Notes under the pieces: generated by a model
Told to the model about the DNA's origin: nothing
Seen by the model: only the letters and a program-made list of their open reading frames with translations
Database searches by the model: none
Position numbers and translations under genes: made by a program
Assembly (NCBI RefSeq): GCF_000008565.1
Contig: NC_001263.1
Location: 705,776 to 737,775, forward strand
DNA from: Deinococcus radiodurans R1 = ATCC 13939 = DSM 20539
GTDB lineage: Bacteria > Deinococcota > Deinococci > Deinococcales > Deinococcaceae
DNA length: 32,000 bases
Direction: 5' to 3'
In this document: piece by piece, positions 8,862-27,167 of the stretch
Layout of the letters: each line of letters starts with the position of its first letter
How positions within the stretch are numbered: position 1 is the stretch's first letter

Positions 8862-8931
8862 GTCTAAGGGTCTGAGCGTCTAGGGTCTATGCTGTTCTTT
8901 CTTAGACCTTTAGACCCTCTTCCCTTAGAAC
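8862..8931. repeat. Compound palindromic repeat inside the atpF-atpA intercistronic gap
   Basis: gtctaagggtct / gtctagggtcta on the left arm face tagaccttt / tagaccct / cccttagaa on the right arm. tctaaggg (8863-8870) pairs with cccttaga (8922-8929), and agggtcta (8882-8889) pairs with tagaccct (8911-8918). Confidence 0.6.
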
Positions 8932-8950
8932 TTTTCCGAAGGAGCATCAA

Positions 8951-12111
<3,161 letters not shown>

Positions 12112-12201
12112 AGGGCTGAGGGTTGAGAGCGCATGGCAAAAGACTTTGACCATGACCTCCCGACCCTCTACCATCACCACCAACGAGGGAGGTGAACACA
12201 A

Positions 12202-12876
12202 ATGGCAGGACAAATCAGCCCCACCCGCTCCGCGCTGCTCGCCAGCAAGGCCAGCCTCAAGACCGCCAACGGCGGCGCCGACCTGCTCAAGCGCAAGCGT
12301 GACGCCCTGATCGGCGAATTCTTTGCACTCGTCAAGGACGCGCTCGCCGCCCGTGAGCAGCTCTCGAGCGTGAGCAAAGGCGCGTATACCAGCCTCTTCG
12401 GCGCCAAAGCCTGGGACAGCCCCGAGGCCGTCGAGAGCCTGAGCCTCGCCGGGACCGGCGACTACGCCGTGGACATGCAGATCGAGAGCATCTACGGCGT
12501 GAAGGTGCCCAAGATCAACATCCCCGAGCGCGCCGCCCAGGCGGACTTCAGCCCGATCAACGTCGGCGCCCGCACCATTCAGGCGTCGAACGACTTCGGC
12601 GGGGTGCTCGAAGCCATCGTGAAGGTGGCGGCCACCGAAACCAAGCTGCGCCGCATCGGCGAGGAGATCAAAAAGACCTCGCGCCGCGTGAACGCACTTG
12701 AACAGGTGGTTATCCCCGGCATTCACGACGACATCCGCTTCATTCGCAGCGTGCTCGACCAGCGCGAACGCGAAGCCGGCTACACCCAGAAGAAGATCAA
12801 GGCCAAGATCGAGGGCAAGAACAAAGAAGCCCGCGAAGCCGCCGCCGCGACCAGCCACGGCAGCGCCGCCGACTGA
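12202..12876 (+). CDS. atpD: A/V-type ATPase central-stalk subunit D
   Basis: 224 aa. ISPTRSALLASKASLKTANGGADLLKRKRDALI is the typical N-terminus and RRVNALEQVVIP the C-terminal motif. SD gagggagg upstream. Confidence 0.93.
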   Translation: MAGQISPTRSALLASKASLKTANGGADLLKRKRDALIGEFFALVKDALAAREQLSSVSKGAYTSLFGAKAWDSPEAVESLSLAGTGDYAVDMQIESIYGVKVPKINIPERAAQADFSPINVGARTIQASNDFGGVLEAIVKVAATETKLRRIGEEIKKTSRRVNALEQVVIPGIHDDIRFIRSVLDQREREAGYTQKKIKAKIEGKNKEAREAAAATSHGSAAD

Positions 12877-12952: not shown

Positions 12953-13411
12953 ATGAACGCGCACCTCATCCCACTCGCTGAGAACGCGGGGGTTCCCAAC
13001 AATCCCCAGCTGCCGGCCCGCCGTTATCCCTCGGCGCTGAAGGGTCAGAGCGCCGCGCAGGTGCGGGACCACCTCAAGGCCCGCGACTGGTTCGGGAGCT
13101 GGACCGGGCAGATTTACAATTTCCATCACTACCATAGCCACGCCCACGAGGTCATCGTGGTGCTGCGGGGTCAGGCCGGGGTCATTCTGGGCGGCGCGGG
13201 CGGCCCCGAGCTGTCGGTGGGGGAGGGTGACGTGCTGCTGATTCCCGCTGGCGTGGGCCACTGCTCGCTACACCACAGCGCCGATTTTCAGATCATGGGG
13301 GCCTATGCGGCGGGGCGAAGCTGGGACATCTGCCGACCGGAGGACACCGACCTCGCCTGGGCCAGAGCGCGCATTGCCGAGGTGCCCGACTGGGTGCAGG
13401 AGCCGGTCTGA
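12953..13411 (+). CDS. Cupin-domain protein (YjlB-like)
   Basis: 152 aa. HHYHSHAHEVIVVLRGQAG...GDVLLIPAGVGH is a two-motif cupin signature. Confidence 0.75.
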   Translation: MNAHLIPLAENAGVPNNPQLPARRYPSALKGQSAAQVRDHLKARDWFGSWTGQIYNFHHYHSHAHEVIVVLRGQAGVILGGAGGPELSVGEGDVLLIPAGVGHCSLHHSADFQIMGAYAAGRSWDICRPEDTDLAWARARIAEVPDWVQEPV

Positions 13412-13431: not shown

Positions 13432-14028
13432 TTGTTCGCTCGGTTCTTGGCCCAGCTCGACTTTGTGCTGACCTGTGACCGCCTGAAAACCGCCCTGCGG
13501 ACCACCCGGCTGCACGACGGTAGCCGTCTGGAAAACAGCGCAGAGCATTCCTGGCACCTCGCGCTGCTGGCGCTGACGCTGGCCGAATACGCGCCTACCG
13601 GAACCGACGTGGGCCGCGTCGTCCGCCTGCTGCTGATGCATGACCTGGTCGAAATCGGGGCGGGGGACCTGTCCTTCGACGCGCCCGCTGAGGCACAGGC
13701 TGCCCAGCAGGAGGCGGAGGCGCGGGCGGCTGCCGAGCTGTTCGGCTTGTTGCCCACTGACCAGGCCGCCGAATTTCTAGGCCTGTGGCAGGAGTTCGAG
13801 GCCCGCCAGACCACCGAAGTCCGTTTTGCCCGCGCCCTTGACGCCTTGCAGCCCATGCTGTTGACGTGGGGACCCGGTGCCCAGGGGTGCGCCGCCAGCC
13901 ACCCCGAACTCACGCACTTGCGGGTGCTGGGGCTCAAGGAAAAGCACCTGCGCGAGTTTCCCGAACTGTGGGCGGCAGCGCAGGGGGTAATGGCGCAGGC
14001 GCAGGCGAGAGGGGTGCTACAGCCGTAA
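13432..14028 (+). CDS. HD-domain hydrolase (YfbR-like 5'-nucleotidase family)
   Basis: 198 aa. LENSAEHSWHLALLA and LLLMHDLVEIGAGD (the H...HD...D metal ligands). The TTG start is uncertain. Confidence 0.75.
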   Translation: MFARFLAQLDFVLTCDRLKTALRTTRLHDGSRLENSAEHSWHLALLALTLAEYAPTGTDVGRVVRLLLMHDLVEIGAGDLSFDAPAEAQAAQQEAEARAAAELFGLLPTDQAAEFLGLWQEFEARQTTEVRFARALDALQPMLLTWGPGAQGCAASHPELTHLRVLGLKEKHLREFPELWAAAQGVMAQAQARGVLQP

Positions 14029-14029: not shown

Positions 14030-14956
14030 TCAGGGCTGATTCAAAATCAACTTGTCGAGGCTCCGTTCGCCCACATAGGGAATGAGCCCCGCCGCCCGCG
14101 CCCGCTCCGCCGCGCTTTTCATCAGGGCGGGCTGGTTGGCGTACTCGATGGTGAAGACCGGTTTGCCCGCCTGCTGCCACAGCCGGTAACTGGCGAGTAG
14201 CTCGCGCTGCCGCGCGGCTTCGGTGGGCCGGTTGGCGGCATAGACGTAGGTTTCCTCGTTGCCGCTGGCGTCTACGCACGCCGCGTAGCCGGGGTCGCGG
14301 ATGAGTTCGGCAGCGTTCTGGGGAATGATGACGAACTGGGGATTTTGCGCGCGGGCGTGCGCGGCGATTTTGCACACCCACGCCACCATCTCGGCGCGGG
14401 CGCCAGGCCGGTTGTCATGGCGCTGGTAGGCGTCAATGAGGTCCATGTACACGCCGTCGAAGCCCTGCGCGATCACCCGGTCGAGCTGCGCCAGGGCAAT
14501 GGCTTGCCACGCGGGGTCCCAGTACGCCACGTCGAAGTTGCCGGGCCAGTCGGGGTCTTCGTTCAGCAGCCAGGCCGGCGCACCGACTTTCCAGCCCTTC
14601 TGCCAGTAGGAGCGGTAACTCTCGGCGGCGCCCATGCTGAGATAAGCGATGAGCCAGCGGCCCTGTGCGGCGGCCCGGACCTCGGCGGCGGGCCAGGGGG
14701 TGCCGTCGTCGTCGAAGGGGTCCACCACCACCAGCTCGAAGGGCGAGGTGTGAACTGCGTTCAGCCGCGTCTGCCCGTAGCCGGTGAGCTGCACCCCCCA
14801 GTGCTGAACGGCACTCAGCGCAGGTTTTTTGGAGGGCGGAGTCATGGGGACGGTGACTGGCGGAGGAGTCTGAGCGGGACCGGCGCCGCTGGCCTGGGGC
14901 TCGGACGGGCCAGCGCAGGCGGAGAGGAGCAGCAAAGAGCAGAGCAAGGGTTTCAT
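14030..14956 (-). CDS. Secreted lipoprotein, GH114 / TM1410-family TIM-barrel hydrolase (endo-alpha-1,4-polygalactosaminidase-like)
   Basis: 308 aa. Lipobox LLSAC. The blocks WGVQLTGYG, ELVVVDPFDDDG, WLIAYLSMGAAESYRSYW, DWPGNFDVAYWDPAWQ and GFDGVYMDLIDAY match my memory of the Glyco_hydro_114 / TM1410 consensus. SD ggaggaa. ATGA overlap with the upstream gene. Confidence 0.78.
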   Translation of the reverse strand: MKPLLCSLLLLSACAGPSEPQASGAGPAQTPPPVTVPMTPPSKKPALSAVQHWGVQLTGYGQTRLNAVHTSPFELVVVDPFDDDGTPWPAAEVRAAAQGRWLIAYLSMGAAESYRSYWQKGWKVGAPAWLLNEDPDWPGNFDVAYWDPAWQAIALAQLDRVIAQGFDGVYMDLIDAYQRHDNRPGARAEMVAWVCKIAAHARAQNPQFVIIPQNAAELIRDPGYAACVDASGNEETYVYAANRPTEAARQRELLASYRLWQQAGKPVFTIEYANQPALMKSAAERARAAGLIPYVGERSLDKLILNQP

Positions 14957-15711
14957 AGTTCCTCCAGGGCGGGCCAGCCGCCGGGCCGTGAGAGGGCGCG
15001 GTCACTGACGAAAGTAGGCAGGTTCAGCGCCGCTGCACGTGCCCTCGCGGCTGCCGCCAGTTCGGGCCGGTCGGCGTAGTCGAGCGCGTGTACGGCGAGT
15101 CCGCTGCGGCGCACCTCAGTCAGCCAGGCAGCGGTGTAGGCCAGCCCCGCCACGTCGTGCAGCGCGTAGGGCGTGTGGTGGGTGCTGAAGGCCTCAAACA
15201 ACACGCCGCTGTCGGGGGCGCTGCGCAGCAATTCCGGCAGCGCCGGCCACAGCGTAAAGCCCCGGTTGGCCCACAGCGCCGCCTGGGGAAACACCGCGCG
15301 CAGGTGCCGCAGCAGGGCGAGGGTCGCCGCCGGGTCCGCACTTTCCAGCGTGTCGAGGAGCAGGCCGTCGGTGTGTTCGAGCGCCTGCTCCGCCCGCGTC
15401 AGCAGGGTCGAGTGCCACAGCGGGTGCGCGGCGTCCACCACCACGCTCGGCCACGCGGCGTTGGGTTGCTGGTGGTAGGCGGCGCTGCCGGGGCGGCATT
15501 CCCAGTCTCCCAGCGGGTGGTCCTCGCCCACGCTGAGGTAAGCGAGAACGTGGGTGCTGCCGCCCCGCAGCGCCGCGAGTTGCTCAGGCGTATAAAGCGG
15601 CGCTTGCACGACCACCCGTGGAAAGGCCGCCAGCGTTGCCAGAGCCGGTGCGGTGGCTGGGCCGTAGTACACGGCGAGCTGCGGAGCGGGGGGCTCAGTG
15701 GGCGCTGACAT
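14953..15711 (-). CDS. Divergent GH114/PelA-hydrolase-like TIM-barrel protein with no obvious signal peptide
   Basis: 252 aa. LAVYYG, PRVVVQAP, HVLAYLSVGEDH and GLLLDTLES resemble the strand-end motifs of the neighbouring GH114-like protein. The start overlaps the upstream stop by 17 nt. No SD is seen. Confidence 0.6.
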   Translation of the reverse strand: MSAPTEPPAPQLAVYYGPATAPALATLAAFPRVVVQAPLYTPEQLAALRGGSTHVLAYLSVGEDHPLGDWECRPGSAAYHQQPNAAWPSVVVDAAHPLWHSTLLTRAEQALEHTDGLLLDTLESADPAATLALLRHLRAVFPQAALWANRGFTLWPALPELLRSAPDSGVLFEAFSTHHTPYALHDVAGLAYTAAWLTEVRRSGLAVHALDYADRPELAAAARARAAALNLPTFVSDRALSRPGGWPALEEL

Positions 15712-17851
15712 TCACAATGAGGGTGCCGCTCACGTCGCCGCTTTGCAGCCGCAGGGCGCCGTAGGGCTCGCCCGCCACGCCGCCAGTCAGCAGGTAGGGG
15801 AGCGGAGCCGCACTGGTGAGGGTCACCGTGCCCGCCGTGCGGTCATAGACGCCGCTCAGGTCGCCCCGGTCCTGAGCATGAATGGTGCGGGTGCGGCGTT
15901 CGAGGTAGGTGCCGAGGTCGTCCCAGCTCAGCGTGGTGAGTGGCAGGGTCGAGAAGGTGGAGTAGCGCCGCAGCAGCGCCCGCACCCAGTCGCTCGCCAC
16001 GCTTTTGCCGGGGGCGTACTCGCGCAGATTGGCCTGGTGCATGTAGTGGGGAAAGGCACCGCCGTCAAGCAGATGGTTCAGGGCAAAGCCGCTTTCCTGG
16101 TCGAGCAGCTCGGCGTAGCTCAGGTTGTGGTCCCAGTAAGGCGCCGTGCCCTGGGGGCCGTAGACACTGTTGTAGTACCCCGTCACCTCGTCGGGCGTGG
16201 TCGAGAAATAGGCGACGCCGTTGGGCCAGCGCGGCACCAGAAAGACATTTGGGTTGAGCGGGTGCGGCACGCCGCAGGTCGGGCAACCGGGGTCCCACTG
16301 GCTGTGCACGCTGTGGTCGGAGGCGATAAAGCGCACATTAGTCTTGTTCATCGCCGTCAGCAGGTTGACGTTGCTGCGCTCCAGGCCGAGGTCCTGCTTG
16401 GGCTGCTGGTACAGGCCGTTGTTGTGCGCGCCGTCGTCGGTCGGGTCCATGTAGCCCAGGCCCGATTGTTCGCCGGTCACCAGGGCCGCGCGGCTGAGCT
16501 TGAGGCCGAGTTGTGCCCCGACCCACAGGTTGTCCTGAAGTTGCGCGGTCGCCGTTGCCTCGTCCATCACGTCCATGCGGAGGTGGTCGTGGGTGTGGTT
16601 CACCCAGTCGAAGGTGTCGCCCAGACACTTGCTCGCACTGCTCAGCGCATCGGGGCTGAGCGCCAGCGACTCGCGGGTACACAGCAAGGGCGCGTTCGGC
16701 GTGGCGCCCAGCCCGTTGTAGGCCAGCGCGTAGCGGAAGGTGCGCGCCGCCGGAAACTCGGTTTCGATGGCCTGTTGCTGCTCCCGCAACGAGAGCGCGT
16801 CGCTGCCGCTGATGCGGAAAGGGTCTGAATAGAAACCGCCCGTCGCCGCGTCGTAGTGCGTGCCGGGCAAAAACCAGTCGTCGATGTCGATTTGCAGGAA
16901 CCGGCGGTGCTCGCCGAGGTGCACGCCGCGGGTCAGCCATTCCAGCAGACCGGAGCCGAGGAGCTGGGTGTGCGGCAGCGTGGGCGCCTGCATGGTGGTC
17001 AGCAGCAGCCGCTCGCGACCGTCGCTGGTGGTCGAGGTGGCGGCAAGCACCCGGCCCTGGGGGTCGGTGAGCAGCGGCGTGGTGCTCGCCACTCCGGGCA
17101 CCGGCACCACGGCGGCGGGGTAGGTGTAGGCGTAGAGCACCTGCATGGCCTGCGCGGTCAGGTCGAGCAGCGTGCGCTGGCCTTCCGGGGTCGCCTGCGC
17201 GGTGGTGAGCGTCGTAGCCGCGCCGTCCACCGCCCGCAGGCCGTAGTCCTCGGGCACCGCGCCCGGCCAGCCGAACAGCGCGAGTTGCCGGACCCGGTAG
17301 GCCCGCTCGTACTCGAACAGCGTTTGCCATTCGGTGCTGTCGAGCGCGCTGGGCAGCGGCCCCGGCTCACTGCTGGGCATCAGCAGGGCGCTGCTGGTGA
17401 GAATGACGCCTTGGTAGCGGCCCACACCGTCGCCGCGCACCAGCGTGTCCATCGTCAGTGGCTGGGCGCTCGCGTCGAGCACGTCGTAGGGAATGGCCGA
17501 CTCCTGCACCATGCTCAGGGCGCTGCTCAGGCCGAAGTCGCCCGCCCCGCTGCCGATGACGAGCACCCGCAGCGCCACCCGGTTCGTCTGGGCATTCGCG
17601 GGGAGGGCCTGCGCGTGCAAACTGGGCCCGCGCGGCACGTAGCCTTCATGGAGGCGGCGAGCGGCGTCCTGGGCCTCGGGCGAGGGCGCTTGCGGGGTAT
17701 TCAGGGGAGCTGCCGGGGCCGCGTGGTCAGGGGCCGTGGCTAGCGTCGTTTCCGGCAGAGCGGCGCCCGGCGTCACCGGCTCGCTTTGCCCGCAGGCGGC
17801 GAGCAGCAGGGTCACCGACACCAGGGCCGGCAAAGTGGGGAGACGTTTCAT
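15695..17851 (-). CDS. Large lipoprotein, putative polysaccharide deacetylase (Agd3/CE18-like), paralogue 2
   Basis: 718 aa. Lipobox LLAAC20. CE4-type motifs IDIDDWF (D322-D325), NHTHDH (H419..H423 as H-T-x-x-H) and LVPRWPNG. SD ggagga. Collinear with the 730-aa paralogue upstream. Confidence 0.7.
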   Translation of the reverse strand: MKRLPTLPALVSVTLLLAACGQSEPVTPGAALPETTLATAPDHAAPAAPLNTPQAPSPEAQDAARRLHEGYVPRGPSLHAQALPANAQTNRVALRVLVIGSGAGDFGLSSALSMVQESAIPYDVLDASAQPLTMDTLVRGDGVGRYQGVILTSSALLMPSSEPGPLPSALDSTEWQTLFEYERAYRVRQLALFGWPGAVPEDYGLRAVDGAATTLTTAQATPEGQRTLLDLTAQAMQVLYAYTYPAAVVPVPGVASTTPLLTDPQGRVLAATSTTSDGRERLLLTTMQAPTLPHTQLLGSGLLEWLTRGVHLGEHRRFLQIDIDDWFLPGTHYDAATGGFYSDPFRISGSDALSLREQQQAIETEFPAARTFRYALAYNGLGATPNAPLLCTRESLALSPDALSSASKCLGDTFDWVNHTHDHLRMDVMDEATATAQLQDNLWVGAQLGLKLSRAALVTGEQSGLGYMDPTDDGAHNNGLYQQPKQDLGLERSNVNLLTAMNKTNVRFIASDHSVHSQWDPGCPTCGVPHPLNPNVFLVPRWPNGVAYFSTTPDEVTGYYNSVYGPQGTAPYWDHNLSYAELLDQESGFALNHLLDGGAFPHYMHQANLREYAPGKSVASDWVRALLRRYSTFSTLPLTTLSWDDLGTYLERRTRTIHAQDRGDLSGVYDRTAGTVTLTSAAPLPYLLTGGVAGEPYGALRLQSGDVSGTLIVNVSAH

Positions 17852-17945
17852 GAGGGAGTCCTCCGGCCAGACAGCATTCCCAGCCTGTCACCGGCCATAT
17901 GTGCAGCGGCTTTCTTTCTGACGCTGCTTTGAGCGCCCTTGGCTG

Positions 17946-17979
17946 TATGACTCAAGACAAAATATGACTCACGACAAAA
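17946..17979. repeat. 17-nt tandem direct repeat (x2) upstream of paralogue 2
   Basis: tatgactcaagacaaaa (17946-17962) and tatgactcacgacaaaa (17963-17979) differ at one position. Each copy contains the palindromic heptamer TGACTCA. Confidence 0.8.
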
Positions 17980-18013
17980 CCCGCTCCTGGCAGAGAAGCC
18001 AGAAAAGCGGGTT
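17972..18013 (-). terminator. Intrinsic terminator between the two deacetylase paralogues
   Basis: Minus strand: AACCCGC-tttt-CTGGC ttctct GCCAG-ga-GCGGGTT, followed by TTGTCGT. It begins about 25 nt after the 730-aa gene's stop. Confidence 0.6.
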
Positions 18014-18037
18014 GCCGGGCGGCTCAGGCCACTGGCC

Positions 18038-20230
18038 TCAGCGCGGGGTGACGGCGAGGGTGGCCGCACCACTGACGGTGCCTTGCTGGCTGCGGGCCGT
18101 GCCATACAGTTCGCCGCTCGCACTGCCGGTCAGCGTGTAGGGCACAGACGCGGTGCTTTGCAGGGTCACGCTGCCGGCGGCGCGGTCATAGACGCCGCTC
18201 AGGTCGCCGGACGCTTTGGCCTTTTCCTCGCGGGTGCGGCGCTCGAGGTAGGCGCCGAGGTCGTCCCAGCGCAGGGTGTTGAGCGGCAAGGTGCTGTACT
18301 GGGCGTATTTGGTCAGCAGCGCCTGAACCCAGTCGGTCGCCAGGCTCTTGCCCCAGCCGTACTCGCGCAGGTTGGGCTGGTGCATATAGTGCGGGAACGC
18401 GGCGCCGTCGAGCACCTGACTCAGCGCCATGTCGCTCTCGTTGTTCAGGAACTCATTGTAGCTCAGGTTGTGATCCCAGTACGGAAAGCGTCCCTGCGGC
18501 CCGTAGACGCTGTTGTAGTACCCCGTCGCCTCGGCGGGCGTGGTGACGTGGTAGGCGACGCCGTTGGGCCAGCGTGGCACCAGGAAAATGCCGGGGTTGA
18601 GCGGGTGCAACACGCCGCAGGTGGGGCAGCTGTCGTCGCGCTGGCTGGCGACGCTGTGGTCGGACGCCAGGTAACGAATCCCGTTTTGCACGGCGGCGCC
18701 GAGCAGGTTTGGGTTGCTGCGTTCTAGACCCAGGTCCTGCTTGGGGTGTTGGTAAACGCCGTCGTTGTGAGTGCCGTCGTCAGTCGGGTCCATGAAGCCC
18801 AGACCCGAGTGTTCGCCGGTCACCAGCGACTGGCGGCTGATGGTCAGGCCCAGACGCGTCCCGATGGCGAAGTTGTCGGCGAGCTGGGCGTCGGCGGTGG
18901 CAAAGTCCGTCACGTCCATGCGCTGGTGGTCACGGGTGTGGTTCACCCAGTCGAAGGTGTTGCCCAGGCACTTGCTCGCGCTGCTCAGCGAATCCTTGGC
19001 GACGCCCGTGAACAGCGTGGTGCACAACGTCGCCACGTCGGTTCGCGCCCCGCCGCCGTTGAAAGCCATCGCGTAGCGGAAGTTGCGCGCTAGCGGGTAG
19101 TCGCTGCGAATGCGGCTCTGCTGGTCGCGCACCGCGAGCGCGTCGTTGCCGCTGATGCGGAAGGCTTTGTCGTACAGCCCCCCGGTGCTGGCGTTGTAGT
19201 GGTCGCCGGCCAGGAACCAGTCGTCGATGTCCACCTGCAGGAACCGGCGGTGCTCACCGAGGTGCACGCCGCGCGTCAGCCAGTTCACCAGCCCGTAGCT
19301 GAGCAGTTGCGTGTGCAGCAGCGCGGGGTTTTGCGCCGTGGTGAGCAGCAGCCGCTCGCGTCCGTCGGCACTCGTCGAGGTGGCGGCGAGCACGCGGCCC
19401 TGAGCGTCGGTCATCAGCGGGGTGGTGGTCACGCCGGGCACGCTGGCGACGGTGGCCGGGTAGGAGTAGGCGTAACGCACCGGGATGTTGGCGGTGGTCA
19501 GGTCGCTCAGGACACTGCGGCCCGCAGCGGTGGGGGTCATGCTGGTGGTCGAGGTTTCGGCCCCCGCCACCGCCCGCAGGCCGTAGTCCTCGGGCACGGC
19601 GCCGGGATAGCCGTAGAGCGCGAGCTGGCGCACGCCGTAGGCCTTCTCGTACTCGAACAGGGTCTGCCACTCGCTGCTGTCGAGCGCACTCGGCATCAGG
19701 CCGCTGCTGTCGGGTGGCAGGAGCAGGGCGTTGCTGGTCAAGATGACGCCCTGGTAGCGGCCCACGCCGTCGGGGCCGATCAGGGCGTCGGGCGTCAGCG
19801 GCTGGCTGCTGGCGTCGAGCACGTCGAAGGGCACGCCCGATTCGCCGAGCATGTTGCGGGCTTCGGCCAGGCCGTAATCGCCCGCGCCGCTCGACAGAAT
19901 CAGAACCTTGAGCGCGACCTTGTTCGTCTGCACCCCAGCGGGCAGCGCCTGCGCCGAGAGCGAGCGGCCCTGCGGCACGTACGCCGCTCCCAGGCGGGCA
20001 CGGGCGGCGGACGTGTCATTGTTCTGGGCGCGCAGCAGCGGCGACTGCCGGGGGTCGGGCAGGGTGCCCGTCTCGGTCGCCGCACGCGGGGCGGTCACTT
20101 CGTCCACCACGGTGGGGGGAACACTGGCGTTCGTCGCGTCGGGGGTCGTCCGGTCCTGACCACAGCCGGTCAGAGTAAGGGTGAGCGTCAGGGCACAGAG
20201 GGCGGCGGCAGAGGCGCGGAGGTGTTTCAT
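18038..20230 (-). CDS. Large lipoprotein, putative polysaccharide deacetylase (Agd3/CE18-like), paralogue 1
   Basis: 730 aa. Lipobox LTGC23. VDIDDWF (D334-D337), NHTRDH (H431..H435) and LVPRWPNG. SD gggag. Long blocks are shared with the 718-aa paralogue. Confidence 0.7.
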   Translation of the reverse strand: MKHLRASAAALCALTLTLTLTGCGQDRTTPDATNASVPPTVVDEVTAPRAATETGTLPDPRQSPLLRAQNNDTSAARARLGAAYVPQGRSLSAQALPAGVQTNKVALKVLILSSGAGDYGLAEARNMLGESGVPFDVLDASSQPLTPDALIGPDGVGRYQGVILTSNALLLPPDSSGLMPSALDSSEWQTLFEYEKAYGVRQLALYGYPGAVPEDYGLRAVAGAETSTTSMTPTAAGRSVLSDLTTANIPVRYAYSYPATVASVPGVTTTPLMTDAQGRVLAATSTSADGRERLLLTTAQNPALLHTQLLSYGLVNWLTRGVHLGEHRRFLQVDIDDWFLAGDHYNASTGGLYDKAFRISGNDALAVRDQQSRIRSDYPLARNFRYAMAFNGGGARTDVATLCTTLFTGVAKDSLSSASKCLGNTFDWVNHTRDHQRMDVTDFATADAQLADNFAIGTRLGLTISRQSLVTGEHSGLGFMDPTDDGTHNDGVYQHPKQDLGLERSNPNLLGAAVQNGIRYLASDHSVASQRDDSCPTCGVLHPLNPGIFLVPRWPNGVAYHVTTPAEATGYYNSVYGPQGRFPYWDHNLSYNEFLNNESDMALSQVLDGAAFPHYMHQPNLREYGWGKSLATDWVQALLTKYAQYSTLPLNTLRWDDLGAYLERRTREEKAKASGDLSGVYDRAAGSVTLQSTASVPYTLTGSASGELYGTARSQQGTVSGAATLAVTPR

Positions 20231-20346: not shown

Positions 20347-21261
20347 TTAACTCCCACCAGAATACAACTCGGTCAACGCTGCCGCCAGGTCTTCGCCGGG
20401 GGTGTACCCACTCGCCTTAAGGGCCGTTAAATCTGCCCGCTGGTACGGCACGTCGCCGCTGCGGGGGCTGCCGGGGGCGTCTTCGAGCAGGTCGCCGCCG
20501 TAGCCGGCAATCCGCGCCAGTTCGGTCACGAGGTCGCGCACCGGGCGGGCCACGCCGCTGCCGAGGTTGAGCACGCCCCGCGCCTCCTCGCCCGGCTGTC
20601 CGTGGAGAAAGTGGAGCACCGCCCGCCCCACGTCCCGCGCCGCGATGAAGTCCCGGAAAGCGCCCAGCGGTCCGAAGCGCACGCTGGGGAGGCCCTGCTC
20701 GGCTGCTGCCCGCAGCTCCCGCGCCGCCCGGCCCGGCAGCGAGCCGGGGTTCATGCCTGCGCCCACCGGGTTGGTCAGCCGCAGCGCCAGCGCGTCGGCG
20801 CGGCCCGTCCGCACGGCTTCCTCCAGCAGCACCGTCCCTGCCAGCTTGCTCGCCCCGTAAGGCGAAAGCGGCTGCGCAGGGCCGTCCTCGCGGCTCGCCT
20901 CGCCCTCTGGGGTGCGCCCGTACTCGGCGGCGGAGGCGAGGTGGATGAGACGCAAGTCCGCCGCCTGCACCGCTTCGAGCACCCCGGCGAGCAACAGCAC
21001 GTTGGCGCGGGTGAGGTCGCTCAGGCTGCCAGCGGTGCGTCCGGCGGCGTTGATGACCGCGCTTGCGCCGTCAAGCTGGGCGGCCCAGTCTGCGGGCGTC
21101 AGCGCGGTGAGGTCGCCCGTCGTGGTCCGCACGTCCACCCCGGCGTCCCGCAGCTCACGGGCAATCACGCCGCCCAGAAACCCGCCCGCGCCGAGCAGGA
21201 GGACGCGGCCCGGCTGGGGTGGGGTTACGGAATTGGGGGTCACAGTTGCGGGGCCTATCAC
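20347..21261 (-). CDS. NAD-dependent sugar epimerase/dehydratase (extended SDR)
   Basis: 304 aa. Rossmann GAGGFLGG and catalytic PYGASK (YxxxK). GTG start in a GTGA overlap with the upstream nucleotidyltransferase stop. Confidence 0.8.
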   Translation of the reverse strand: MIGPATVTPNSVTPPQPGRVLLLGAGGFLGGVIARELRDAGVDVRTTTGDLTALTPADWAAQLDGASAVINAAGRTAGSLSDLTRANVLLLAGVLEAVQAADLRLIHLASAAEYGRTPEGEASREDGPAQPLSPYGASKLAGTVLLEEAVRTGRADALALRLTNPVGAGMNPGSLPGRAARELRAAAEQGLPSVRFGPLGAFRDFIAARDVGRAVLHFLHGQPGEEARGVLNLGSGVARPVRDLVTELARIAGYGGDLLEDAPGSPRSGDVPYQRADLTALKASGYTPGEDLAAALTELYSGGS

Positions 21262-22001
21262 AGTTGGGGAGGACGGGGCGGAATGCCGCCGGGCAGCAGG
21301 ACTTTTTGCATTTCATTCCACTGCTCGTTGGCGGTGTCGTAATCCTCGGGGCGCCCGATGTCGAGCCAGTAGCCGCCGAAGAGGTCGCTGCGTGGGCGCT
21401 CGCCCGCCGCGAGCAGGTCGAGCATCAGCGTGTCGAAGCCGAGCACCTGCCCCGGCTGGTAGCGGCCCAGGGTGCTTTTCGTCATGCCGTACACGCCCAT
21501 GCTGACCTGAAAGGGCACGGCGGGCTTTTCGCGGAAGGCGACGATGTGTTCGCCCGAGTCGTCCACGTCGAGCACGCCGAATTCGCTGCGAATCTCGCGG
21601 TGGTAGGTCGAAACCGTCAGCGGGTCGCCGCTCGCCATATGGCCGCGCAAAAAAGCGCCGTAATTGAGGTCGGTGAGCACGTCGCCGTTCATGATCAGGA
21701 AGTGCTCGGGCAGCCAGGGCAGCACGTTGAGCACCGGGCCGATGGTGCCGAGCGGCGTTTCTTCCTCGGTGTAGTCGATGTCGAGCCCGTACTGCCGCCC
21801 GTTGCCGACAAAGGCGCGGATGAGGTGGCTGAGGTGCCCCACCGCCAGCGTGACGCGGGTAAACCCGAACGACTTGAGCTGGTGAAGCACAATTTCCAGA
21901 ATCGAGAGTTCGCCGCCGATGGGCACGAGGGGCTTGGGAACGCGGGTGGTGTAGGGACGCAGGCGGGTGCCTTGGCCTCCGGCGAGGATGACGGCGTGCA
22001 T
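21258..22001 (-). CDS. Sugar-1-phosphate nucleotidyltransferase (NTP_transferase family)
   Basis: MHAVILAGGQGTRLRPYTTRVPKPLVPIGG is the canonical signature. The ATG at 22001 is preceded by gaaggagg. The ORF-track start at 22106 is an over-extension into the upstream gene. Confidence 0.88.
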   Translation of the reverse strand: MHAVILAGGQGTRLRPYTTRVPKPLVPIGGELSILEIVLHQLKSFGFTRVTLAVGHLSHLIRAFVGNGRQYGLDIDYTEEETPLGTIGPVLNVLPWLPEHFLIMNGDVLTDLNYGAFLRGHMASGDPLTVSTYHREIRSEFGVLDVDDSGEHIVAFREKPAVPFQVSMGVYGMTKSTLGRYQPGQVLGFDTLMLDLLAAGERPRSDLFGGYWLDIGRPEDYDTANEQWNEMQKVLLPGGIPPRPPQL

Positions 22002-22048
22002 GGGGCCTCCTTCAAAACGTAGGAATGTGACGAGCGGGGGGAGGGGGC

Positions 22049-23083
22049 TCAGATGGTGTACTGGTCCACCCGGTAACGGGCGAGGTTGCCAGCGTCGGTG
22101 AACCACTCGGCGGTGCGCTTCAGCCCCTCTTCGAGCGTCACCTGCGGCTGCCAGCCGGTCAGCGTCTGCAACTCGCGGTGGTCGGCGAGCAGGCGCATGA
22201 CTTCGCTGCCCTCGGGGCGCAGGCGCTCGTCTTCCTGCTTGACCTCTACGTCCTTGCCCATGACCTGCGCGATGAGTTTCACGGTGTCGCCCACACTGAT
22301 TTCGCGGCCCGAGCCGGCGTTGAGGGTGCGCCCGAGGACTTCCGGCCCCGCCTCGCCCACCGCACGAAAGGCGCGGGCGGTGTCGGCCACGTAGTTGAAG
22401 TCGCGGGTGGGGCGCAGGTCACCGAGCTTGATTTCGGTGCGCCCGGCGGCGAGCTGTGAGATGATCGTCGGAATGACCGCGCGGGCCGACTGGCGCGGGC
22501 CGTAGGTGTTGAAAGGCCGCAGCGTGACCACCGGCAGCCCGAAGCTGAGGAAATAGCTCTCGGCGAGCTTGTCGGCGCCGATTTTGGTGGCCGAGTAGGG
22601 CGACTGCCCTTGCAGCGGGTGCGACTCGTGGATGGGCACGCTGCGGGCGGTGCCGTAGACCTCGGAGGTCGAGGTGTGAATCACGCGCCCGGTGCCGAGG
22701 TCACGGGCGGCTTCGAGCACGTTCAGGGTGCCGGTGATGTTCGTCTCCACATACGAGCGCGGCGCGACGTAGGAGTAGGGAATGGCGATCAGCGCGGCGA
22801 GGTGGTACACGGTCTGCACGTCCCGCATCAGCGCCCGCACGCTGCCCGCGTCGCGCACGTCGCCGAGCTGCACTTCGACGTGTTCCATCACTTCGCCCGG
22901 CACGGTGTCGAGCCAGCCGTAGCTGCCCTGCGAGTTGTAGATCGCCATCGCCCGCACGCGGTAGCCCGCCCGCACGAGGTCTTCGGTGAGGTGCGAGCCG
23001 ATAAAGCCGTCGGCGCCGGTCACGGCCACCAGGGGGCGGGAGGTGCTGGAAGTGCTGGAGGCAGAAAGGTCAGTCTGGTTCAT
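22049..23083 (-). CDS. NDP-sugar dehydratase/epimerase (extended SDR)
   Basis: 344 aa. VTGADGFIGSHL, STSEVYG and YSATK. ATGA overlap with the upstream membrane-protein stop. Confidence 0.85.
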   Translation of the reverse strand: MNQTDLSASSTSSTSRPLVAVTGADGFIGSHLTEDLVRAGYRVRAMAIYNSQGSYGWLDTVPGEVMEHVEVQLGDVRDAGSVRALMRDVQTVYHLAALIAIPYSYVAPRSYVETNITGTLNVLEAARDLGTGRVIHTSTSEVYGTARSVPIHESHPLQGQSPYSATKIGADKLAESYFLSFGLPVVTLRPFNTYGPRQSARAVIPTIISQLAAGRTEIKLGDLRPTRDFNYVADTARAFRAVGEAGPEVLGRTLNAGSGREISVGDTVKLIAQVMGKDVEVKQEDERLRPEGSEVMRLLADHRELQTLTGWQPQVTLEEGLKRTAEWFTDAGNLARYRVDQYTI

Positions 23084-24564
23084 CGGTAACTCCGGAGGTC
23101 ATAGAGGGTGAACAGGGTAAGCGGCAGCAGGGCGAAGGCGGCGAAGAGCGAAAGCGCGGGCGGCGAGACACCCAGGGTCAGCAGCAGGCAAAAGCCCAGC
23201 CAGAAGGCGAGCAGCCAGCGCTCGCGCCGCTGGTTGGCAAGCCAGGTGCTCAGCAGCAGCGCGGCGCCGAAGGCCGACACCGTGACCAGGGCGGCGCGGC
23301 TCAGGTCGCTGAAGGGCAGGTCGCCAAGGGTGCCGGGGCCCGCCGCGCCAGCAGGAGCTGGGGTGCCGATGCCCAGCCAGCCGGCGGCCAACCAGCGCAC
23401 GGCGCTGAGCAGCGCGAGCAGGCTGAGCAGCCCCAGCCCGTAGACCAGCGCCGTGCCCAGCACCCGCGCCGCGCCCCGGCGCACCAGCAGGGTGAAACTG
23501 CCCTGCTGCCGGGCCACGTATTGCAGGCCCTGCTGCGCGTTCCACACCCCGGCTTCGAGCAGCCCGGCGCTGAGCACCAGCGGCAGCATGGTCCAGCCGC
23601 CCAGCCGCAGGCTCAGCCCCGCAAAGGCGGCGGCCAGCGCCCAGCCGTAAGCCGCCAGCCCCAGGCCGGGGCGCAGGGTGACAAACCGGGCGGGCAGTTC
23701 GCCGCCGTCGCGGGTGGCCCGCAGCGCGAGCAGCACCGGAAAGACGGCCAGGGCCGCGAGCGCCGCCACTGCCAGTCCCGTGCTCGGCAGCACATACAGC
23801 ATCCCGCCGAGCAGCAGCGCGGGCGCAAAGGCCCCGGCCACCTGCCCGCGTTCGCCCAGCGCCAGCATCACCCCGGCGGCGGCTCCGGCGAGGGCCACCG
23901 CGCCGCCCATCGCCGTGCCCCACAGCAGCGAGGTGGTCCACAGCCCGCTGCCGGGCCACAGCAGGGCGCTCAGGGCGCCGCCCAGCAGGCCGCAGGCGCC
24001 GCCCACCCACAGCGTCAGCCGCAGCGCCCGCCCCGGCGTCCCGAGCGGTTCGGCGTAGCGCACGCTGGCGATCAGTAGCGAGTAGCCCCAGCCGAAAGCC
24101 GCCGCGAACACGAAAGCCCGTCCGGTGACCGGGGGCGTGGCCTGTGCGATCAGCAGGCCGCACAGCCCCGGCAGCAGGTAGAGCGGCCCGCGCTGCGCGA
24201 GCTCCCAGGGAAAGCGGGGCCGCGCCTCACGCCGGGGCCGTTCCAGGGCGCGCCCGGTGCCGCGCTGCGCGTAGAGCCACTCGGCGGCGGCAAACAGCCC
24301 CCCGGCGCCGTAGCGGTCGCGCAGGCTCTCGTCGTTCAGGCCGTCGGCTTCGAGGTAGGCGGCGATTTCCAGCGCGTCCACCGCCCGCTCGCGGTCCGGG
24401 CGCAGCGTCAGGTCCACCTCGCGCAGCTTGTCAGGCAGCGGCAATTCGGCCAGGGCATCGGGGCGCGGCTCTCCTGCCGGGTCCGGCGCGCGTCCAGTGA
24501 GCACGTCGAAACCGGTCAGCGTGCCAGTGGGCGAGCCGGAGGACGTGGGAGGGCCTTTCACCAC
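23080..24564 (-). CDS. Polytopic inner-membrane protein with a soluble N-terminal domain of about 125 aa (occupies the PelG position)
   Basis: 494 aa. After a charged N-terminal domain there are about 10-11 Ala/Leu/Gly-rich hydrophobic segments. The GTG start lies 11 nt after the glycosyltransferase stop. No family motif was recognised by eye. Confidence 0.6.
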   Translation of the reverse strand: MVKGPPTSSGSPTGTLTGFDVLTGRAPDPAGEPRPDALAELPLPDKLREVDLTLRPDRERAVDALEIAAYLEADGLNDESLRDRYGAGGLFAAAEWLYAQRGTGRALERPRREARPRFPWELAQRGPLYLLPGLCGLLIAQATPPVTGRAFVFAAAFGWGYSLLIASVRYAEPLGTPGRALRLTLWVGGACGLLGGALSALLWPGSGLWTTSLLWGTAMGGAVALAGAAAGVMLALGERGQVAGAFAPALLLGGMLYVLPSTGLAVAALAALAVFPVLLALRATRDGGELPARFVTLRPGLGLAAYGWALAAAFAGLSLRLGGWTMLPLVLSAGLLEAGVWNAQQGLQYVARQQGSFTLLVRRGAARVLGTALVYGLGLLSLLALLSAVRWLAAGWLGIGTPAPAGAAGPGTLGDLPFSDLSRAALVTVSAFGAALLLSTWLANQRRERWLLAFWLGFCLLLTLGVSPPALSLFAAFALLPLTLFTLYDLRSYR

Positions 24565-24574: not shown

Positions 24575-26113
24575 TCACCACAGCTCGCCCGGTCCCTGTG
24601 AAGGCGAAAGTCGGGCGGCGCGGGCCACCGGGTAAGCGCGGCGGTAGGCGTCGAGGCAGCCGTCGAGGGTAAACAGGTCCATGACGCGGGCGCGGGCCGC
24701 CTGCCCGAGTTGCTGGCGCAGCGCCGGGTCGTCGAGCAGTTTGGTGAGCGCGTTCGCCACCCCGAGCGCGTCGCGGGGCCGCACGATGAGTCCGGCGTCG
24801 CCCACCGCCTCCGGCACGCCGCCCACCCGCGTGGCGACGGGGGGCCGGCCCATTGCCATCGCCTCGATCACCGTGTAGGGAAAGCCCTCGCTCACGCTGG
24901 TCAGCGCCACCACCTGCCCGGCGCGGTAGGCGTCGGTGATGTCGTCCACCCGGCCCTCGAACTTCACGTGCTCGTCGAGGTTCAGCCCCGCTGCCACCTG
25001 CCGGCAGTGCTGCTCGTAGCCCTCGTTGCCGACGGGCGTGCCGCCGAACAGCCGCAGGCGGGCGTCGGGGCGGCGGCGGCGCACGAGGTCGAAGGCGCGA
25101 ATCAGGGTTTCGAGGTCCTTCAGGGGATCCACCCGGCCCACCCAGCTCACCACCGGCCCTTCCGGTTCCGATTCGGCGGGCGGAAAGATATTGGGGTCAA
25201 TGCCGTTGTAGACGCACTGAATGCGGTCTGGGTCGGCGCCCAGCCGTTCTTCCCAGCGGCGGTTGTAGTGCGAGCCGGGCAGCACCAGCGCCGCGTTTTG
25301 GTAGGCCACCGAGCACAGCAGGCGGTAAAAGCGCAGCAGCATGGTCTTGTACCCCGGCGCGTGCCGCCCCCGCCGGAACTCGATGTAGCGCTCGCGCAGG
25401 TAGATGCCGTGCTCTGTCAGGACGAAGGGCGTGCCGCGCTGCCACAGCCCATGTAGCGCCAGCATCGCCGCGAAGCCGTTGCTCACCGCGTGCCCCACGT
25501 CGGCCTCGGGGGGCACGGCGGTCAGGGGCCGCAGGGCGTGTTCGAGCCAGATCTGCACGTCGAGCGCCTCGGCCACCGTCGGGCGCGGTAAGCGGGGGCT
25601 GAGGCGGTCACGCTGGGCAGCGAGGGTCTGCGCCTCGCGGTCCCAGAGGTTGAGGGTGAGCTGCGCGGCCCGCGCACTGTCGAGCGCCGGGGTCAGGCTG
25701 CCGCGCTGGCCGAGGTCACTCAGGCGCCGCAGCGCCACGCTGAAGGTGGGCACGTCGAGCCGGCACAGCCCGGTGAGCAGCGTCTCGTAGGCGGTCAGCA
25801 CCTCACCCGCAAAGGCCCGGCGGTGGGCCTGCTGCCACAGCCGCCCGCCCGCGCCGCCGGGAGGTGGCCCCCACAGCGGCACCTGCTCGACCTGCACGTT
25901 GCCGGGCACCTCCAGCGCCATGCGGGTAAACGGCAGCCCGGCAATCGCCTGCACCGCGAACTGGTGGTCGCTCAGCCCGCGCACCAGTTGGTCCACCCAC
26001 ACGCTCACGCCGCCGTGCGCCTGCGGGTAGGTGCCCTCGGTGTACAGCGCGATGCGGGTCGCCGCGCGGGCGGGGAGCGCCGGGGATGAATTGGAAGTCA
26101 GGGGCAGAGTCAT
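24575..26113 (-). CDS. PelF-like glycosyltransferase (DUF3492 N-domain + GT4)
   Basis: 512 aa from the ATG at 26113. IALYTEGTYPQAHGGVSVWVDQLVRGLSDHQF matches the PelF/DUF3492 N-terminal signature as I recall it. The C-terminal GT4 part has VSWVGRVDPLKD, LTSVSEGFPYTVIEAMAMGRPPVAT (EX7E). The 111 codons upstream in the track ORF are Arg/Pro/Ser-rich junk. Confidence 0.85.
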   Translation of the reverse strand: MTLPLTSNSSPALPARAATRIALYTEGTYPQAHGGVSVWVDQLVRGLSDHQFAVQAIAGLPFTRMALEVPGNVQVEQVPLWGPPPGGAGGRLWQQAHRRAFAGEVLTAYETLLTGLCRLDVPTFSVALRRLSDLGQRGSLTPALDSARAAQLTLNLWDREAQTLAAQRDRLSPRLPRPTVAEALDVQIWLEHALRPLTAVPPEADVGHAVSNGFAAMLALHGLWQRGTPFVLTEHGIYLRERYIEFRRGRHAPGYKTMLLRFYRLLCSVAYQNAALVLPGSHYNRRWEERLGADPDRIQCVYNGIDPNIFPPAESEPEGPVVSWVGRVDPLKDLETLIRAFDLVRRRRPDARLRLFGGTPVGNEGYEQHCRQVAAGLNLDEHVKFEGRVDDITDAYRAGQVVALTSVSEGFPYTVIEAMAMGRPPVATRVGGVPEAVGDAGLIVRPRDALGVANALTKLLDDPALRQQLGQAARARVMDLFTLDGCLDAYRRAYPVARAARLSPSQGPGELW

Positions 26114-26278
26114 GGTCAGGTCCAGCGGGGGAGGAAAGGAGAGGCGGGGCGAGGACCGGTAGCGGTTGGAGAGCAGCGCAGCGCCGTGGGGACACCTCGG
26201 CGGACGGCCTCCGGAAAGGAGACGACACCAGGTTGGACCCAGGTTAGAAGAGCGCGTCGCGGGCAGGCGCCGAACGCC

Positions 26279-26300
26279 AATGTTAAAAACTTTACATCTT
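26279..26300 (-). promoter_or_regulatory. AT-rich island with an imperfect palindrome; candidate promoter/operator of the polysaccharide operon
   Basis: aatgttaaaaactttacatctt is the only AT-rich patch in several kb. ATGT(T)AAA / TTTACAT arms. About 170-185 nt upstream of the GT start. Confidence 0.25.
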
Positions 26301-26366
26301 GAGGGGGGTCGGGTGGCCTGTTTCTCTGGACGCTTGCGCGGCGGCGGGTGTCGTTGGGCCTGTCGC

Positions 26367-27167
26367 TCAGGGCTCGGAGTCTGCCTCGTACTTGTCGTCG
26401 AGGTACTGGCCGTGAGCCCGCAGCGCCCGCTGGCCGGCCTGGGCACGCTCGCGGGTCACGGCGGCCATGCGCGTTTCGATGCGGGCGAGTTGGCCGAGCA
26501 GTTCCTCGTCCTGCCGCGCGCCGCTCGGCAGTGCCTGATAAGCGGCGAGCAGGTCGGGCAGGTCCTCGCGCGCCGCTTGCTGGGCGTCGAAAGCGGCGCG
26601 GGAGAGGGTCGTTTCTCCGGCAGTCGCCCTTAGCGCGTCACGGGTGGCGATGACGGTGGCGTGCAGCGCGGGTCGGGTCGCCGGTGGCAAAGCCCGCTCG
26701 TGCTCGCGCAGCAGCGTGAGCAGGGCGCCTTCCTCGGGCGACGTGGTAACGGCAGGAACACTCAGCGGAGCGCGCAGCAGTCCCGCCGCTCGCCAGCCGG
26801 TCCACAGCAGGCCGAGCAGCCCCAGCAGCAGCGCCGCGCCGAGCAGCCACCCCGCCGGCGCGCTGCCGTTCGCCACGCCGATGCCGAGCACGACCAGCAG
26901 CGGCAGCAGCACCAGGGCGCCCAGGCCCGCCAGCGCGAGCAGCACCGCCAACCCGACCCCGCGCCGCGCCACCTGCTGTCCCTGCTCTTTGCGCCGTTGC
27001 CAGCGGGCCGCGCTCGACTCCGCTCTGGTCCACTCCGCTTTGGCCCAGGGGTCGCGGGGGTCCTCGGCGGTCTGGGGCCGCAACAATTCCCGCAGCGCCG
27101 GCGCTCCTATGGAAGAAAGCGCGGCGTTGCGAGAGTCGGTGGGCGGTGCGGGCGGTCGTGAAGCCAT
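26367..27167 (-). CDS. Hypothetical membrane protein (two TM segments + C-terminal helical domain; XpaC-like topology?)
   Basis: 266 aa. Two adjacent hydrophobic helices (GLAVLLALAGLGALVLLPLLVVLGIG, WLLGAALLLGLLGLLWTGW), then an Ala/Arg/Leu-rich helical region. The start is 3 nt after the mug stop. Confidence 0.6.
   Translation of the reverse strand: MASRPPAPPTDSRNAALSSIGAPALRELLRPQTAEDPRDPWAKAEWTRAESSAARWQRRKEQGQQVARRGVGLAVLLALAGLGALVLLPLLVVLGIGVANGSAPAGWLLGAALLLGLLGLLWTGWRAAGLLRAPLSVPAVTTSPEEGALLTLLREHERALPPATRPALHATVIATRDALRATAGETTLSRAAFDAQQAAREDLPDLLAAYQALPSGARQDEELLGQLARIETRMAAVTRERAQAGQRALRAHGQYLDDKYEADSEP

Follow-up and report, generated by a model that had tools for sequence, protein, structure and literature searches.

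Agd3 of Aspergillus fumigatus is the one characterised member of the families CE18 and CBM87, both of which were defined from it (Bamford et al, 2020; PMC7229062). The same study solved the CBM87 module and mutated it, found homologues in 45 bacterial species including members of Deinococcus-Thermus, and described the co-occurrence of bacterial agd3 with genes for a cytoplasmic glycosyltransferase (GT), a multi-pass membrane protein and a GH114 protein (PMC7229062). Here we analyze a tandem pair of such genes in a 32,000-nt window of the Deinococcus radiodurans R1 chromosome (“the window” denotes this whole stretch, which has a GC content of ~67%). The two genes, which we name Agd3-A (upstream) and Agd3-B, very probably encode paralogous lipoprotein deacetylases of the Agd3 family, set within a Deinococcus synthase-type exopolysaccharide locus akin to those for Pel and for fungal galactosaminogalactan (GAG).

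Much of this framework is in print. Operons built in this way, some with as many as three Agd3 genes in a row, are listed for Deinococcus in Supplementary Data 2 of Bamford et al. (2020), which gives a single Agd3 for D. planocerae and for D. grandis and enters several Actinobacteria and Proteobacteria as “Agd3, Agd3”; the tandem arrangement is therefore not new. Their survey lacks the window species and its close relatives, namely Deinococcus sp. PESE-13 (locus L029) and the loci we label L001 and L002, and our literature search for Agd3 or Pel-like loci in Deinococcus turned up only that paper. Family, operon type and tandem arrangement are thus already published, are reflected in Pfam and NCBI annotation, and hold no surprise for a specialist. 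We add that the pair arose within a single lineage, that its copies have diverged asymmetrically and are both under purifying selection, and that A and B are probably transcribed separately; we also reassign a 252-aa “GH114-like” gene to the PelA-hydrolase family and describe a LegB-type sugar-nucleotide trio, which raises the possibility that the substrate is not plain N-acetylgalactosamine (GalNAc).

Architecture and catalytic residues of Agd3-A and Agd3-B

The pair occupies the following positions in the window:

18038..20230, minus strand: Agd3-A, a 730-aa lipoprotein (open reading frame (ORF), Pfam, Agd3 alignment, AlphaFold2 (AF2) model, Foldseek, dN/dS)
15695..17851, minus strand: Agd3-B, a 718-aa lipoprotein, paralogous to A and laid out in the same three domains, with its lipobox cysteine at residue 20

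Both reading frames have exactly the coordinates given in a preliminary description made from the sequence alone, and the collinearity proposed there is borne out by pairwise alignment: BLASTP finds 455 identities over 707 residues (64%, with 11 gaps and E = 0, a likeness far beyond chance), running from the lipobox cysteine to the C-terminus. Identity is highest in the two large domains (67-68%), falls to 55-56% in the beta2 insertion and in the C-terminal domain, and is lowest, at 45%, in the signal and linker; the globular part has no indels. The genes are spaced 186 bp apart, and the best protein matches come from Deinococcus sp. PESE-13 (95%) and D. wulumuqiensis (75%). The sequence motifs and paired cysteines that had been quoted are all present in both copies, and each copy does have its own lipobox: an MKHLR n-region and a hydrophobic stretch precede LTG-C23 in A, and an MKR n-region and a hydrophobic stretch precede LAA-C20 in B. 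With signal peptides ending [LVI][ASTVI][GAS]C, A and B are predicted to be membrane-anchored bacterial lipoproteins; 89 of 98 full-length homologues likewise carry a lipobox. A sub-threshold NCBIfam match to the LptM signal peptide was discarded as spurious.

Profile and structure searches agree with the earlier view of the two proteins as Agd3-like, CE4-related deacetylases. Both score above the Pfam gathering score of 27.6 for CBM87_Agd3 (PF25116; 46.7 bits for A, 43.1 bits for B) and, with the same gathering score, for Agd3_CE (PF25115; 43.4 and 38.0 bits). Searching the Protein Data Bank (PDB) with the single sequence of A returned A. fumigatus Agd3 (6NWZ) as the sole significant match (E 1.9e-13), and a profile built from 36 homologues, the most distant at 28% identity, matched 6NWZ with E 3.2e-62 over chain residues 25-314 and 376-679 of 684, covering all three Agd3 domains. 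An AF2 model of A built from this 36-sequence alignment has a mean pLDDT (predicted local distance difference test) of 88.1 and a pTM (predicted template modeling score) of 0.86. Its top Foldseek match in the PDB is again 6NWZ (E 3.3e-37; template modeling (TM) scores 0.70/0.77 over 718 columns), followed by human NDST1 and then PelA; CE4 enzymes reach E values around 5e-3 or weaker.

The model and alignments place the lipobox cysteine of A at residue 23, a disordered linker up to ~72, the CBM87 module at ~100-300, the CE18 domain at ~331-675 and a C-terminal beta-sandwich at ~676-730. Residues 1-72 are disordered in the AF2 model and appear to form the lipoprotein tether. The mixed alpha/beta domain at residues 101-300 lies within the part of the model that Foldseek aligns to 6NWZ, and it also matches class-I glutamine amidotransferase folds. 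In this respect the preliminary description was right to see an amidotransferase-like pattern in the N-terminal region; its label of “uncharacterised” does not hold, as this is the ~200-residue alpha/beta/alpha CBM87 known from Agd3. The CE domain of the model shows the distorted (beta/alpha)7 fold of CE18, with an insertion after beta2 that widens the interval between motifs CM1 and CM2 to 94 residues. This interval is shorter than the 132 residues of Agd3 and well above that of CE4, which is less than half of Agd3’s (PMC7229062). Taken together, the profiles and the model indicate that A and B are full-length Agd3 homologues, each consisting of CBM87, CE18 and a C-terminal beta-sandwich.

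The residue roles below are those described for Agd3 (PMC7229062), transferred through the profile alignment; Agd3 numbering equals the 6NWZ chain index plus 122, which we verified on H510/H514 and D377/D378.

CM1 base: Agd3 D377, A D336, B D324
CM1 metal ligand: Agd3 D378, A D337, B D325
CM2 metal ligand: Agd3 H510, A H431, B H419
CM2 metal ligand: Agd3 H514, A H435, B H423
CM3 arginine, holding the base: Agd3 R613, A R553, B R541
CM4 acid: Agd3 H668, A H617, B H605

The residues of all four motifs are identical to those of Agd3. The CM1 motif DIDD (A334-337, B322-325) aligns with IDDMFL of Agd3, the CM2 motif H-T-x-D-H (A431-435, B419-423) with HTFTH, the CM3 motif PRWP (A552-555, B540-543) with PRWA, and the CM4 motif HYMHQ (A614-618, B602-606) with YMFHQ. 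None of the 36 homologues departs from D336, D337, H431, H435 or H617, and the conservation of R553 is 90% or more; all six residues are found in both window copies and in nearly all of the 40 copies from 29 loci. These assignments refine the preliminary ones. The histidines proposed there as metal ligands (H431/H435 and H419/H423) stand, but the aspartate named with them, D336/D324, corresponds by homology with Agd3 to the base, the ligand being D337/D325. The R-x-P motif, read as resembling CE4 motif 3, does contain the arginine that aligns with R613 in CM3 of Agd3, but not at the sequence position of MT3 in CE4. The HYMHQ block was quoted correctly, with the predicted catalytic acid H617/H605 inside it overlooked. 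The judgement that both copies look catalytically competent, and that none is decaying, is consistent with the six retained residues and with the selection on both genes described below.

Several features set the Deinococcus proteins apart from Agd3. Identity to Agd3 is only ~18%. Agd3 is secreted and N-glycosylated, whereas the Deinococcus proteins are predicted to be lipoprotein-anchored through a disordered linker of ~50-80 residues, both being extracytoplasmic. The bacterial clade also has an additional conserved CPxC pair and two more cysteines (C403, C421, C535 and C538 in A, where the pair reads CPTC; C391, C409, C523 and C526 in B). Virtually every copy from Deinococcus, Trueperaceae and Asanoa retains all four, and the CPxC region falls where Agd3 has an alignment gap; the set may form a disulfide particular to the bacterial clade or a second metal site. 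In the CBM87 module, the platform residue W292 of Agd3 aligns with Y255 in A and Y242 in B, keeping an aromatic side chain at this position.

Human NDST1 (8CCY, 9F6Z), the second-best structural match of the A model (E 1e-18), aligns with a TM score of ~0.5 over ~580-600 columns that include the N-terminal domain. The bacterial CE18 profile detects the N-deacetylase domain of NDST1 by sequence alone, with E 2.8e-7 across CM1-CM2. NDST1 is likewise a polysaccharide N-deacetylase, but it works in the eukaryotic Golgi, is joined to a sulfotransferase and has N-acetylglucosamine (GlcNAc) in heparosan as its substrate. The resemblance between Agd3 and NDST1 has already been published (PMC10864358).

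Origin, divergence and expression of the pair

Selection on the two copies had been proposed for study through the dN/dS (ratio of nonsynonymous to synonymous substitution rates) of the paralogues. That comparison is effectively saturated and composition-biased (dN 0.30, dS 0.73; GC content at third codon positions 0.89), and we therefore compared each copy with its orthologue in the syntenic locus of PESE-13, where substitutions are unsaturated. The resulting dN/dS values are 0.22 for A and 0.14 for B, alongside 0.06-0.32 for the other genes of the operon. Both copies are under purifying selection; neither is decaying. Gene conversion between A and B has left no trace in the alignment of the two genes, in which no stretch of identical nucleotides exceeds 31 nt and identity at third positions ranges from 0.33 to 0.77.

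Most of the 29 related loci that we compared have a single Agd3 gene. Two adjacent copies occur in seven loci besides the window, D. marmoris has three, and the locus of Deinococcus sp. bin12 (L016) has two that are not adjacent. In bootstrapped neighbor-joining (NJ) trees, the A sequences of the window, PESE-13, L001 and L002 form one clade (support 1.0), the B sequences form another (0.995), and the two are sisters, grouping together with support of 0.995 and joined by one additional B-like sequence, L016_2. Since A and B are sister clades, the trees indicate a duplication specific to one Deinococcus sublineage and separate from the extra copies of the D. marmoris group.

Since then the two copies appear to have diverged unequally. 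Of 22 positions at which the two clades are fixed for different residues, 14 show the state of the other Deinococcus homologues in A and 3 show it in B. Residues otherwise invariant in the genus have been replaced in B at six sites (E225A, A299M, N301A, H474Q, A513M and K641R, in A numbering). Position 474, which is Q462 in B’s own numbering, adjoins the universally invariant S475-G476, and N301A sits at the junction of the CBM and CE domains. Because the fixed differences are so asymmetric, B is best read as the derived copy, now strongly constrained, with A having stayed near the ancestral sequence.

Between the two genes lies a further element:

17975..18016, minus strand: GC-rich hairpin followed by UUUUGU, 22 nt past the A stop codon

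The hairpin folds with -26.3 kcal/mol (z -6.1), and none of 200 shuffled sequences was as stable. L001 (~12238-12270) and L002 (~12258-12285) have hairpins followed by a U-run at the matching place, and these are not homologous to the one in the window. Downstream, a strong Shine-Dalgarno sequence (GGAGGA) precedes B, the end of B overlaps the start of the first of two hydrolase genes by 17 nt, and the two hydrolase genes overlap each other by 4 nt. A rearranged locus bears on the same question. In Deinococcus sp. bin12 (NZ_JAGLBG010000026.1, 391-11181 and downstream), the block of genes for an epimerase, a nucleotidyltransferase, a LegB-type enzyme, the membrane protein and the GT is inverted and lies between an Agd3 copy outside the A clade and a B-like copy; after that B-like copy come the PelA-hydrolase-like gene and GH114, leaving the unit of B plus hydrolases intact. 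The hairpin is a likely intrinsic terminator or attenuator, which would divide the locus into two units of expression. Together, the hairpin, the Shine-Dalgarno sequence, the gene overlaps and the bin12 rearrangement suggest that the biosynthesis unit ends with A and that B shares its expression with the hydrolase genes.

A simpler account of the pair would be redundancy, with the duplication providing enzyme dosage and the sequence differences reflecting neutral drift. The identical domain architecture and catalytic residues, the absence of indels from the globular part, and a copy number that varies freely among Deinococcus loci (one, two or three), as in dosage amplification, all make this a possibility to be taken seriously, if on balance an improbable one. 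It fits poorly with the retention of A and B orthologues as distinct, well-supported clades in several species, with the low dN/dS of both copies, with the asymmetry by which B changed genus-invariant residues (E225A, N301A, H474Q, A513M and K641R among them), and with the hairpin between the genes.

The surrounding polysaccharide locus

The other genes of the locus, preceded by an adjoining ORF, are, along the minus strand:

26367-27167, minus strand: 266-aa ORF just upstream of the PelF-like gene, whose product has a pair of neighboring hydrophobic helices and a helical tail rich in Ala and Arg
24575..26446, minus strand: PelF-like GT4 glycosyltransferase with DUF3492 (Pfam DUF3492 E 8.6e-46, plus Glycos_transf_1)
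23080..24564, minus strand: 494-aa multi-pass membrane protein, presumed polymer exporter and PelG analogue
22049..23083, minus strand: LegB-type NAD-dependent nucleoside diphosphate (NDP)-sugar 4,6-dehydratase (TIGR04180, 483.1 bits against a cut-off of 475)
21258..22106, minus strand: sugar-1-phosphate nucleotidyltransferase (Pfam NTP_transferase E 1.6e-33)
20347..21261, minus strand: short-chain dehydrogenase/reductase (SDR)-type epimerase/reductase, third nucleotide-sugar enzyme, directly upstream of Agd3-A (Pfam Epimerase E 1.3e-29)
14953..15711, minus strand: 252-aa homologue of the PelA glycoside-hydrolase domain (PDB 5TCB E 1.2e-12, residues 15-235)
14030..14956, minus strand: 308-aa GH114/TM1410-family lipoprotein with lipobox LSAC, Ega3 analogue

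On the minus strand the order is thus GT, membrane protein, LegB-type enzyme, nucleotidyltransferase, SDR, A, B, 252-aa gene and GH114, and it is conserved across the Deinococcus loci, as is the position of the SDR gene. The operons of D. marmoris, D. grandis and D. planocerae follow the same plan in the published listing (GTB, transmembrane protein, epimerase, GTA (nucleotidyltransferase), epimerase, one to three Agd3, GH114, GH114); the window differs in that its A/B pair stems from a separate, lineage-specific duplication. The first “GH114” of that listing is better described as a PelA hydrolase-domain homologue. Its counterpart in the window, the 252-aa ORF, has a weak Pfam match to GH114 and is not a clear member of that family; the gene is conserved downstream of the Agd3 genes in most Deinococcus loci. 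The segments LLLDTLES and VLFEAF presumably retain the acidic residues of the PelA D160/E218 type, in an alignment that is slightly shifted. Inspection of the sequence and its hydropathy revealed no recognizable signal peptide in the 252-aa ORF, and no longer upstream ORF is possible. This is unexpected if, as supposed, the enzyme works outside the cytoplasm. The last gene of the locus encodes a clear GH114 protein (Pfam GH114 E 7e-35; TIGR01370 472.6 bits against a cut-off of 181) that matches PDB 9EP5 (E 9e-43) and Ega3 (6OJB, E 2e-7).

At the other end of the locus, the GT scores 174.1 bits with the NCBIfam PelF model NF038011 (cut-off 100). Its true start is probably near 26128, because the PESE-13 orthologue has 517 aa, and that of the nucleotidyltransferase is probably internal, because its orthologue there is called at 247 aa. 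The 494-aa membrane protein could be assigned to no Pfam or NCBIfam family, and PelG sequence models do not pick it up; in a search of 5.8 billion proteins its homologues came from Deinococcus only. It has a conserved soluble helical region near the N-terminus (~residues 40-110). Its AF2 model (pLDDT 83.8) shows a weak Foldseek resemblance to the multidrug/oligosaccharidyl-lipid/polysaccharide (MOP) superfamily (MATE/Wzx/MurJ; E ~1e-3, TM score 0.43-0.48), a fold that would fit the presumed role as a PelG-like exporter without proving it. A Pfam search relaxed to E values up to 10 gave nothing informative for the membrane protein, the 266-aa ORF or the 252-aa ORF. The 266-aa ORF has no family match and is conserved in the closest relatives only (L001, L002 and PESE-13); it may encode a membrane component with an accessory or regulatory part in the locus, or may have nothing to do with it.

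The LegB-type dehydratase is 85-98% identical across the Deinococcus loci. Together with the nucleotidyltransferase and the SDR enzyme it resembles a pathway for making an NDP-6-deoxy-(N-acetyl)hexosamine. Here the locus differs from the fungal GAG cluster (uge3, gtb3, agd3, ega3, sph3), in which a single UDP-Glc/GlcNAc 4-epimerase, Uge3, takes this place. The two share Agd3 (present twice in the window), a GH114 protein adjacent to it, and a GT and a membrane protein, which are separate genes in Deinococcus. No match to GH135, the family of Sph3, was obtained at the locus, where the PelA-hydrolase-like protein is present instead.

The Pel systems offer a second comparison. The deacetylases of Pseudomonas (PelA, now CE21) and Bacillus cereus (PelA_DA, a family of its own) partially de-N-acetylate an alpha-1,4-GalNAc polymer that is made by the GT4 enzyme PelF and exported through PelG, and by analogy the same sequence of steps is predicted here. 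The window has a PelF-class GT and a PelA hydrolase-domain homologue, and PelA is also among the structural matches of A. The window deacetylases, however, are members of CE18/CBM87, neither CE21 nor PelA_DA enzymes; their locus encodes the hydrolase apart from the deacetylases, whereas Pseudomonas PelA carries the hydrolase as its N-terminal domain; and no ORF of the operon matched Pfam or NCBIfam models of PelB, PelC, PelD or PelE. With CE18 deacetylases and without these four proteins, the locus is therefore not a canonical Pel operon. Its gene content marks it as a mosaic, with the GT and a hydrolase of Pel type and the deacetylase of GAG type.

Proposed mechanism and competing readings

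For A and B we infer the following chemistry, substrate and division of labor. The PelF-like GT4 enzyme would build a polymer from an NDP-N-acetylhexosamine that the neighboring trio of nucleotide-sugar enzymes supplies, and the MOP-like membrane protein would export it. Outside the cytoplasmic membrane, the lipoproteins A and B would strip N-acetyl groups by the metal-dependent mechanism of CE4 and CE18, in which D336/D324 would act as the base, D337-H431-H435 or D325-H419-H423 would hold the metal, R553/R541 would position the base and H617/H605 would serve as the acid. Deacetylation would turn the polymer cationic and adhesive, and the downstream PelA-hydrolase-like and GH114 enzymes would trim it. 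In this scheme A would end the biosynthetic block, and B would start behind the hairpin. Because B lies behind this terminator-like element and overlaps the first hydrolase gene, A and B are probably expressed differently; they may also differ in how they position their substrate. The preliminary suggestion that the copies could set different deacetylation patterns has, at most, indirect support in our results.

Several observations weigh against this scheme or parts of it. In the literature we searched, we found no bacterial CE18 protein whose activity, metal content, substrate or transcript had been measured, nor any experiments on the Deinococcus locus. The PF25115 matches of A and B are confined to profile positions ~193-361 of 366, the C-terminal third of the model (the alignment of our 36-sequence profile to 6NWZ spans the entire Agd3 CE domain), and the NCBIfam search returned no family model matching A or B. 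The clustering of Asp, His and His around a divalent metal is predicted from the full-length structural match and homology to 6NWZ. The LegB-type dehydratase suggests that the sugar may not be plain GalNAc. Our scan of the region for terminator-like elements gave 6 hits against a shuffled expectation of 6.1, the hairpin after A being one consensus hit and, as the only positionally conserved one, the only hit retained; a scan of the operon for sigma-70 promoters found no sites. Finally, W344 of Agd3 is a CBM87 aromatic whose mutation increased the half-maximal effective concentration (EC50) 58-fold and moved the position that is deacetylated first, and this aromatic seems to be missing from both Deinococcus copies, in a column whose alignment posterior is only ~0.6 and which we treat as tentative:

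~19322-19330, minus strand: A residues 301-303, with A303 in the W344 column
~16979-16987, minus strand: B residues 289-291, with T291 in the W344 column

At the same posterior of ~0.6, this column holds Tyr in 77% of the other Deinococcus copies, Ala throughout the A clade and Thr throughout the B clade.

Two variants depart from a pair of like deacetylases acting on a Pel- or GAG-like polymer. In one, A is the biosynthetic deacetylase and B has taken on a new role within a separately regulated remodeling or dispersal module, a view that draws on the changes at genus-invariant residues (H474Q, N301A), the hairpin and the overlap with the hydrolase gene. In the other, the nucleotide-sugar trio supplies a 6-deoxy-N-acetylhexosamine, in which case the polymer, and hence the substrate range of CE18, would differ from Pel and GAG. 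We regard these variants, taken together, as rather unlikely.

That A and B leave the polymer of the neighboring GT aside and act on another envelope glycan (peptidoglycan, or an S-layer or cell-wall-associated polysaccharide) is highly doubtful. The fold is related to CE4, a family that includes peptidoglycan deacetylases, and some bacterial agd3 genes lie outside operons (PMC7229062); in Deinococcus, however, the genes are consistently embedded between those for the GT, the exporter and the sugar-nucleotide enzymes and those for two homologues of alpha-1,4-(N-acetyl)galactosaminidase-type hydrolases, and the co-occurrence of Agd3 with GH114 matches the description of Bamford et al. Least credible is that one copy is a catalytically dead, carbohydrate-binding pseudo-enzyme: homologues in NCBI and UniRef are named either “Agd3-related carbohydrate deacetylase” or “Agd3-related carbohydrate-binding protein”, the Agd3_CE match of B is the weaker one (38 bits), with its PESE-13 orthologue flagged “faint”, and some derived substitutions of B lie near an active-site loop, but the base, metal triad, arginine and acid are intact in both copies and both orthologue clades, B has the lowest dN/dS of the pair (0.14), and the names split according to which profile passes, not according to residue loss, so that we rejected the pseudo-enzyme reading drawn from them.

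With every catalytic residue in place, this well-behaved pair would be a convenient system for asking whether bacterial CE18 enzymes de-N-acetylate Pel- or GAG-like polymers, in a family whose bacterial homologues were catalogued only in 2020. It could also show how the CBM87 cleft sets the deacetylation pattern and why tandem duplication recurs. The locus also places a Pel/GAG hybrid in a radiation- and desiccation-resistant genus, in which polysaccharides of a cationic, adhesive kind could be relevant to biofilm formation and desiccation tolerance.

Rfam and tRNA scans of the window found nothing, and the flank of the locus beyond the GH114 gene holds familiar genes:

13432-14028: HD-domain YfbR-like gene
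12953-13411: cupin gene
4561-12876, plus strand: V-type ATPase operon (subunits I, E, C, A, B, D), ~1 kb from the locus

The first two lie between the ATPase operon and the locus. The V-type ATPase operon is typical of Deinococcus-Thermus and represents an ordinary housekeeping context, and this synteny is shared with PESE-13.

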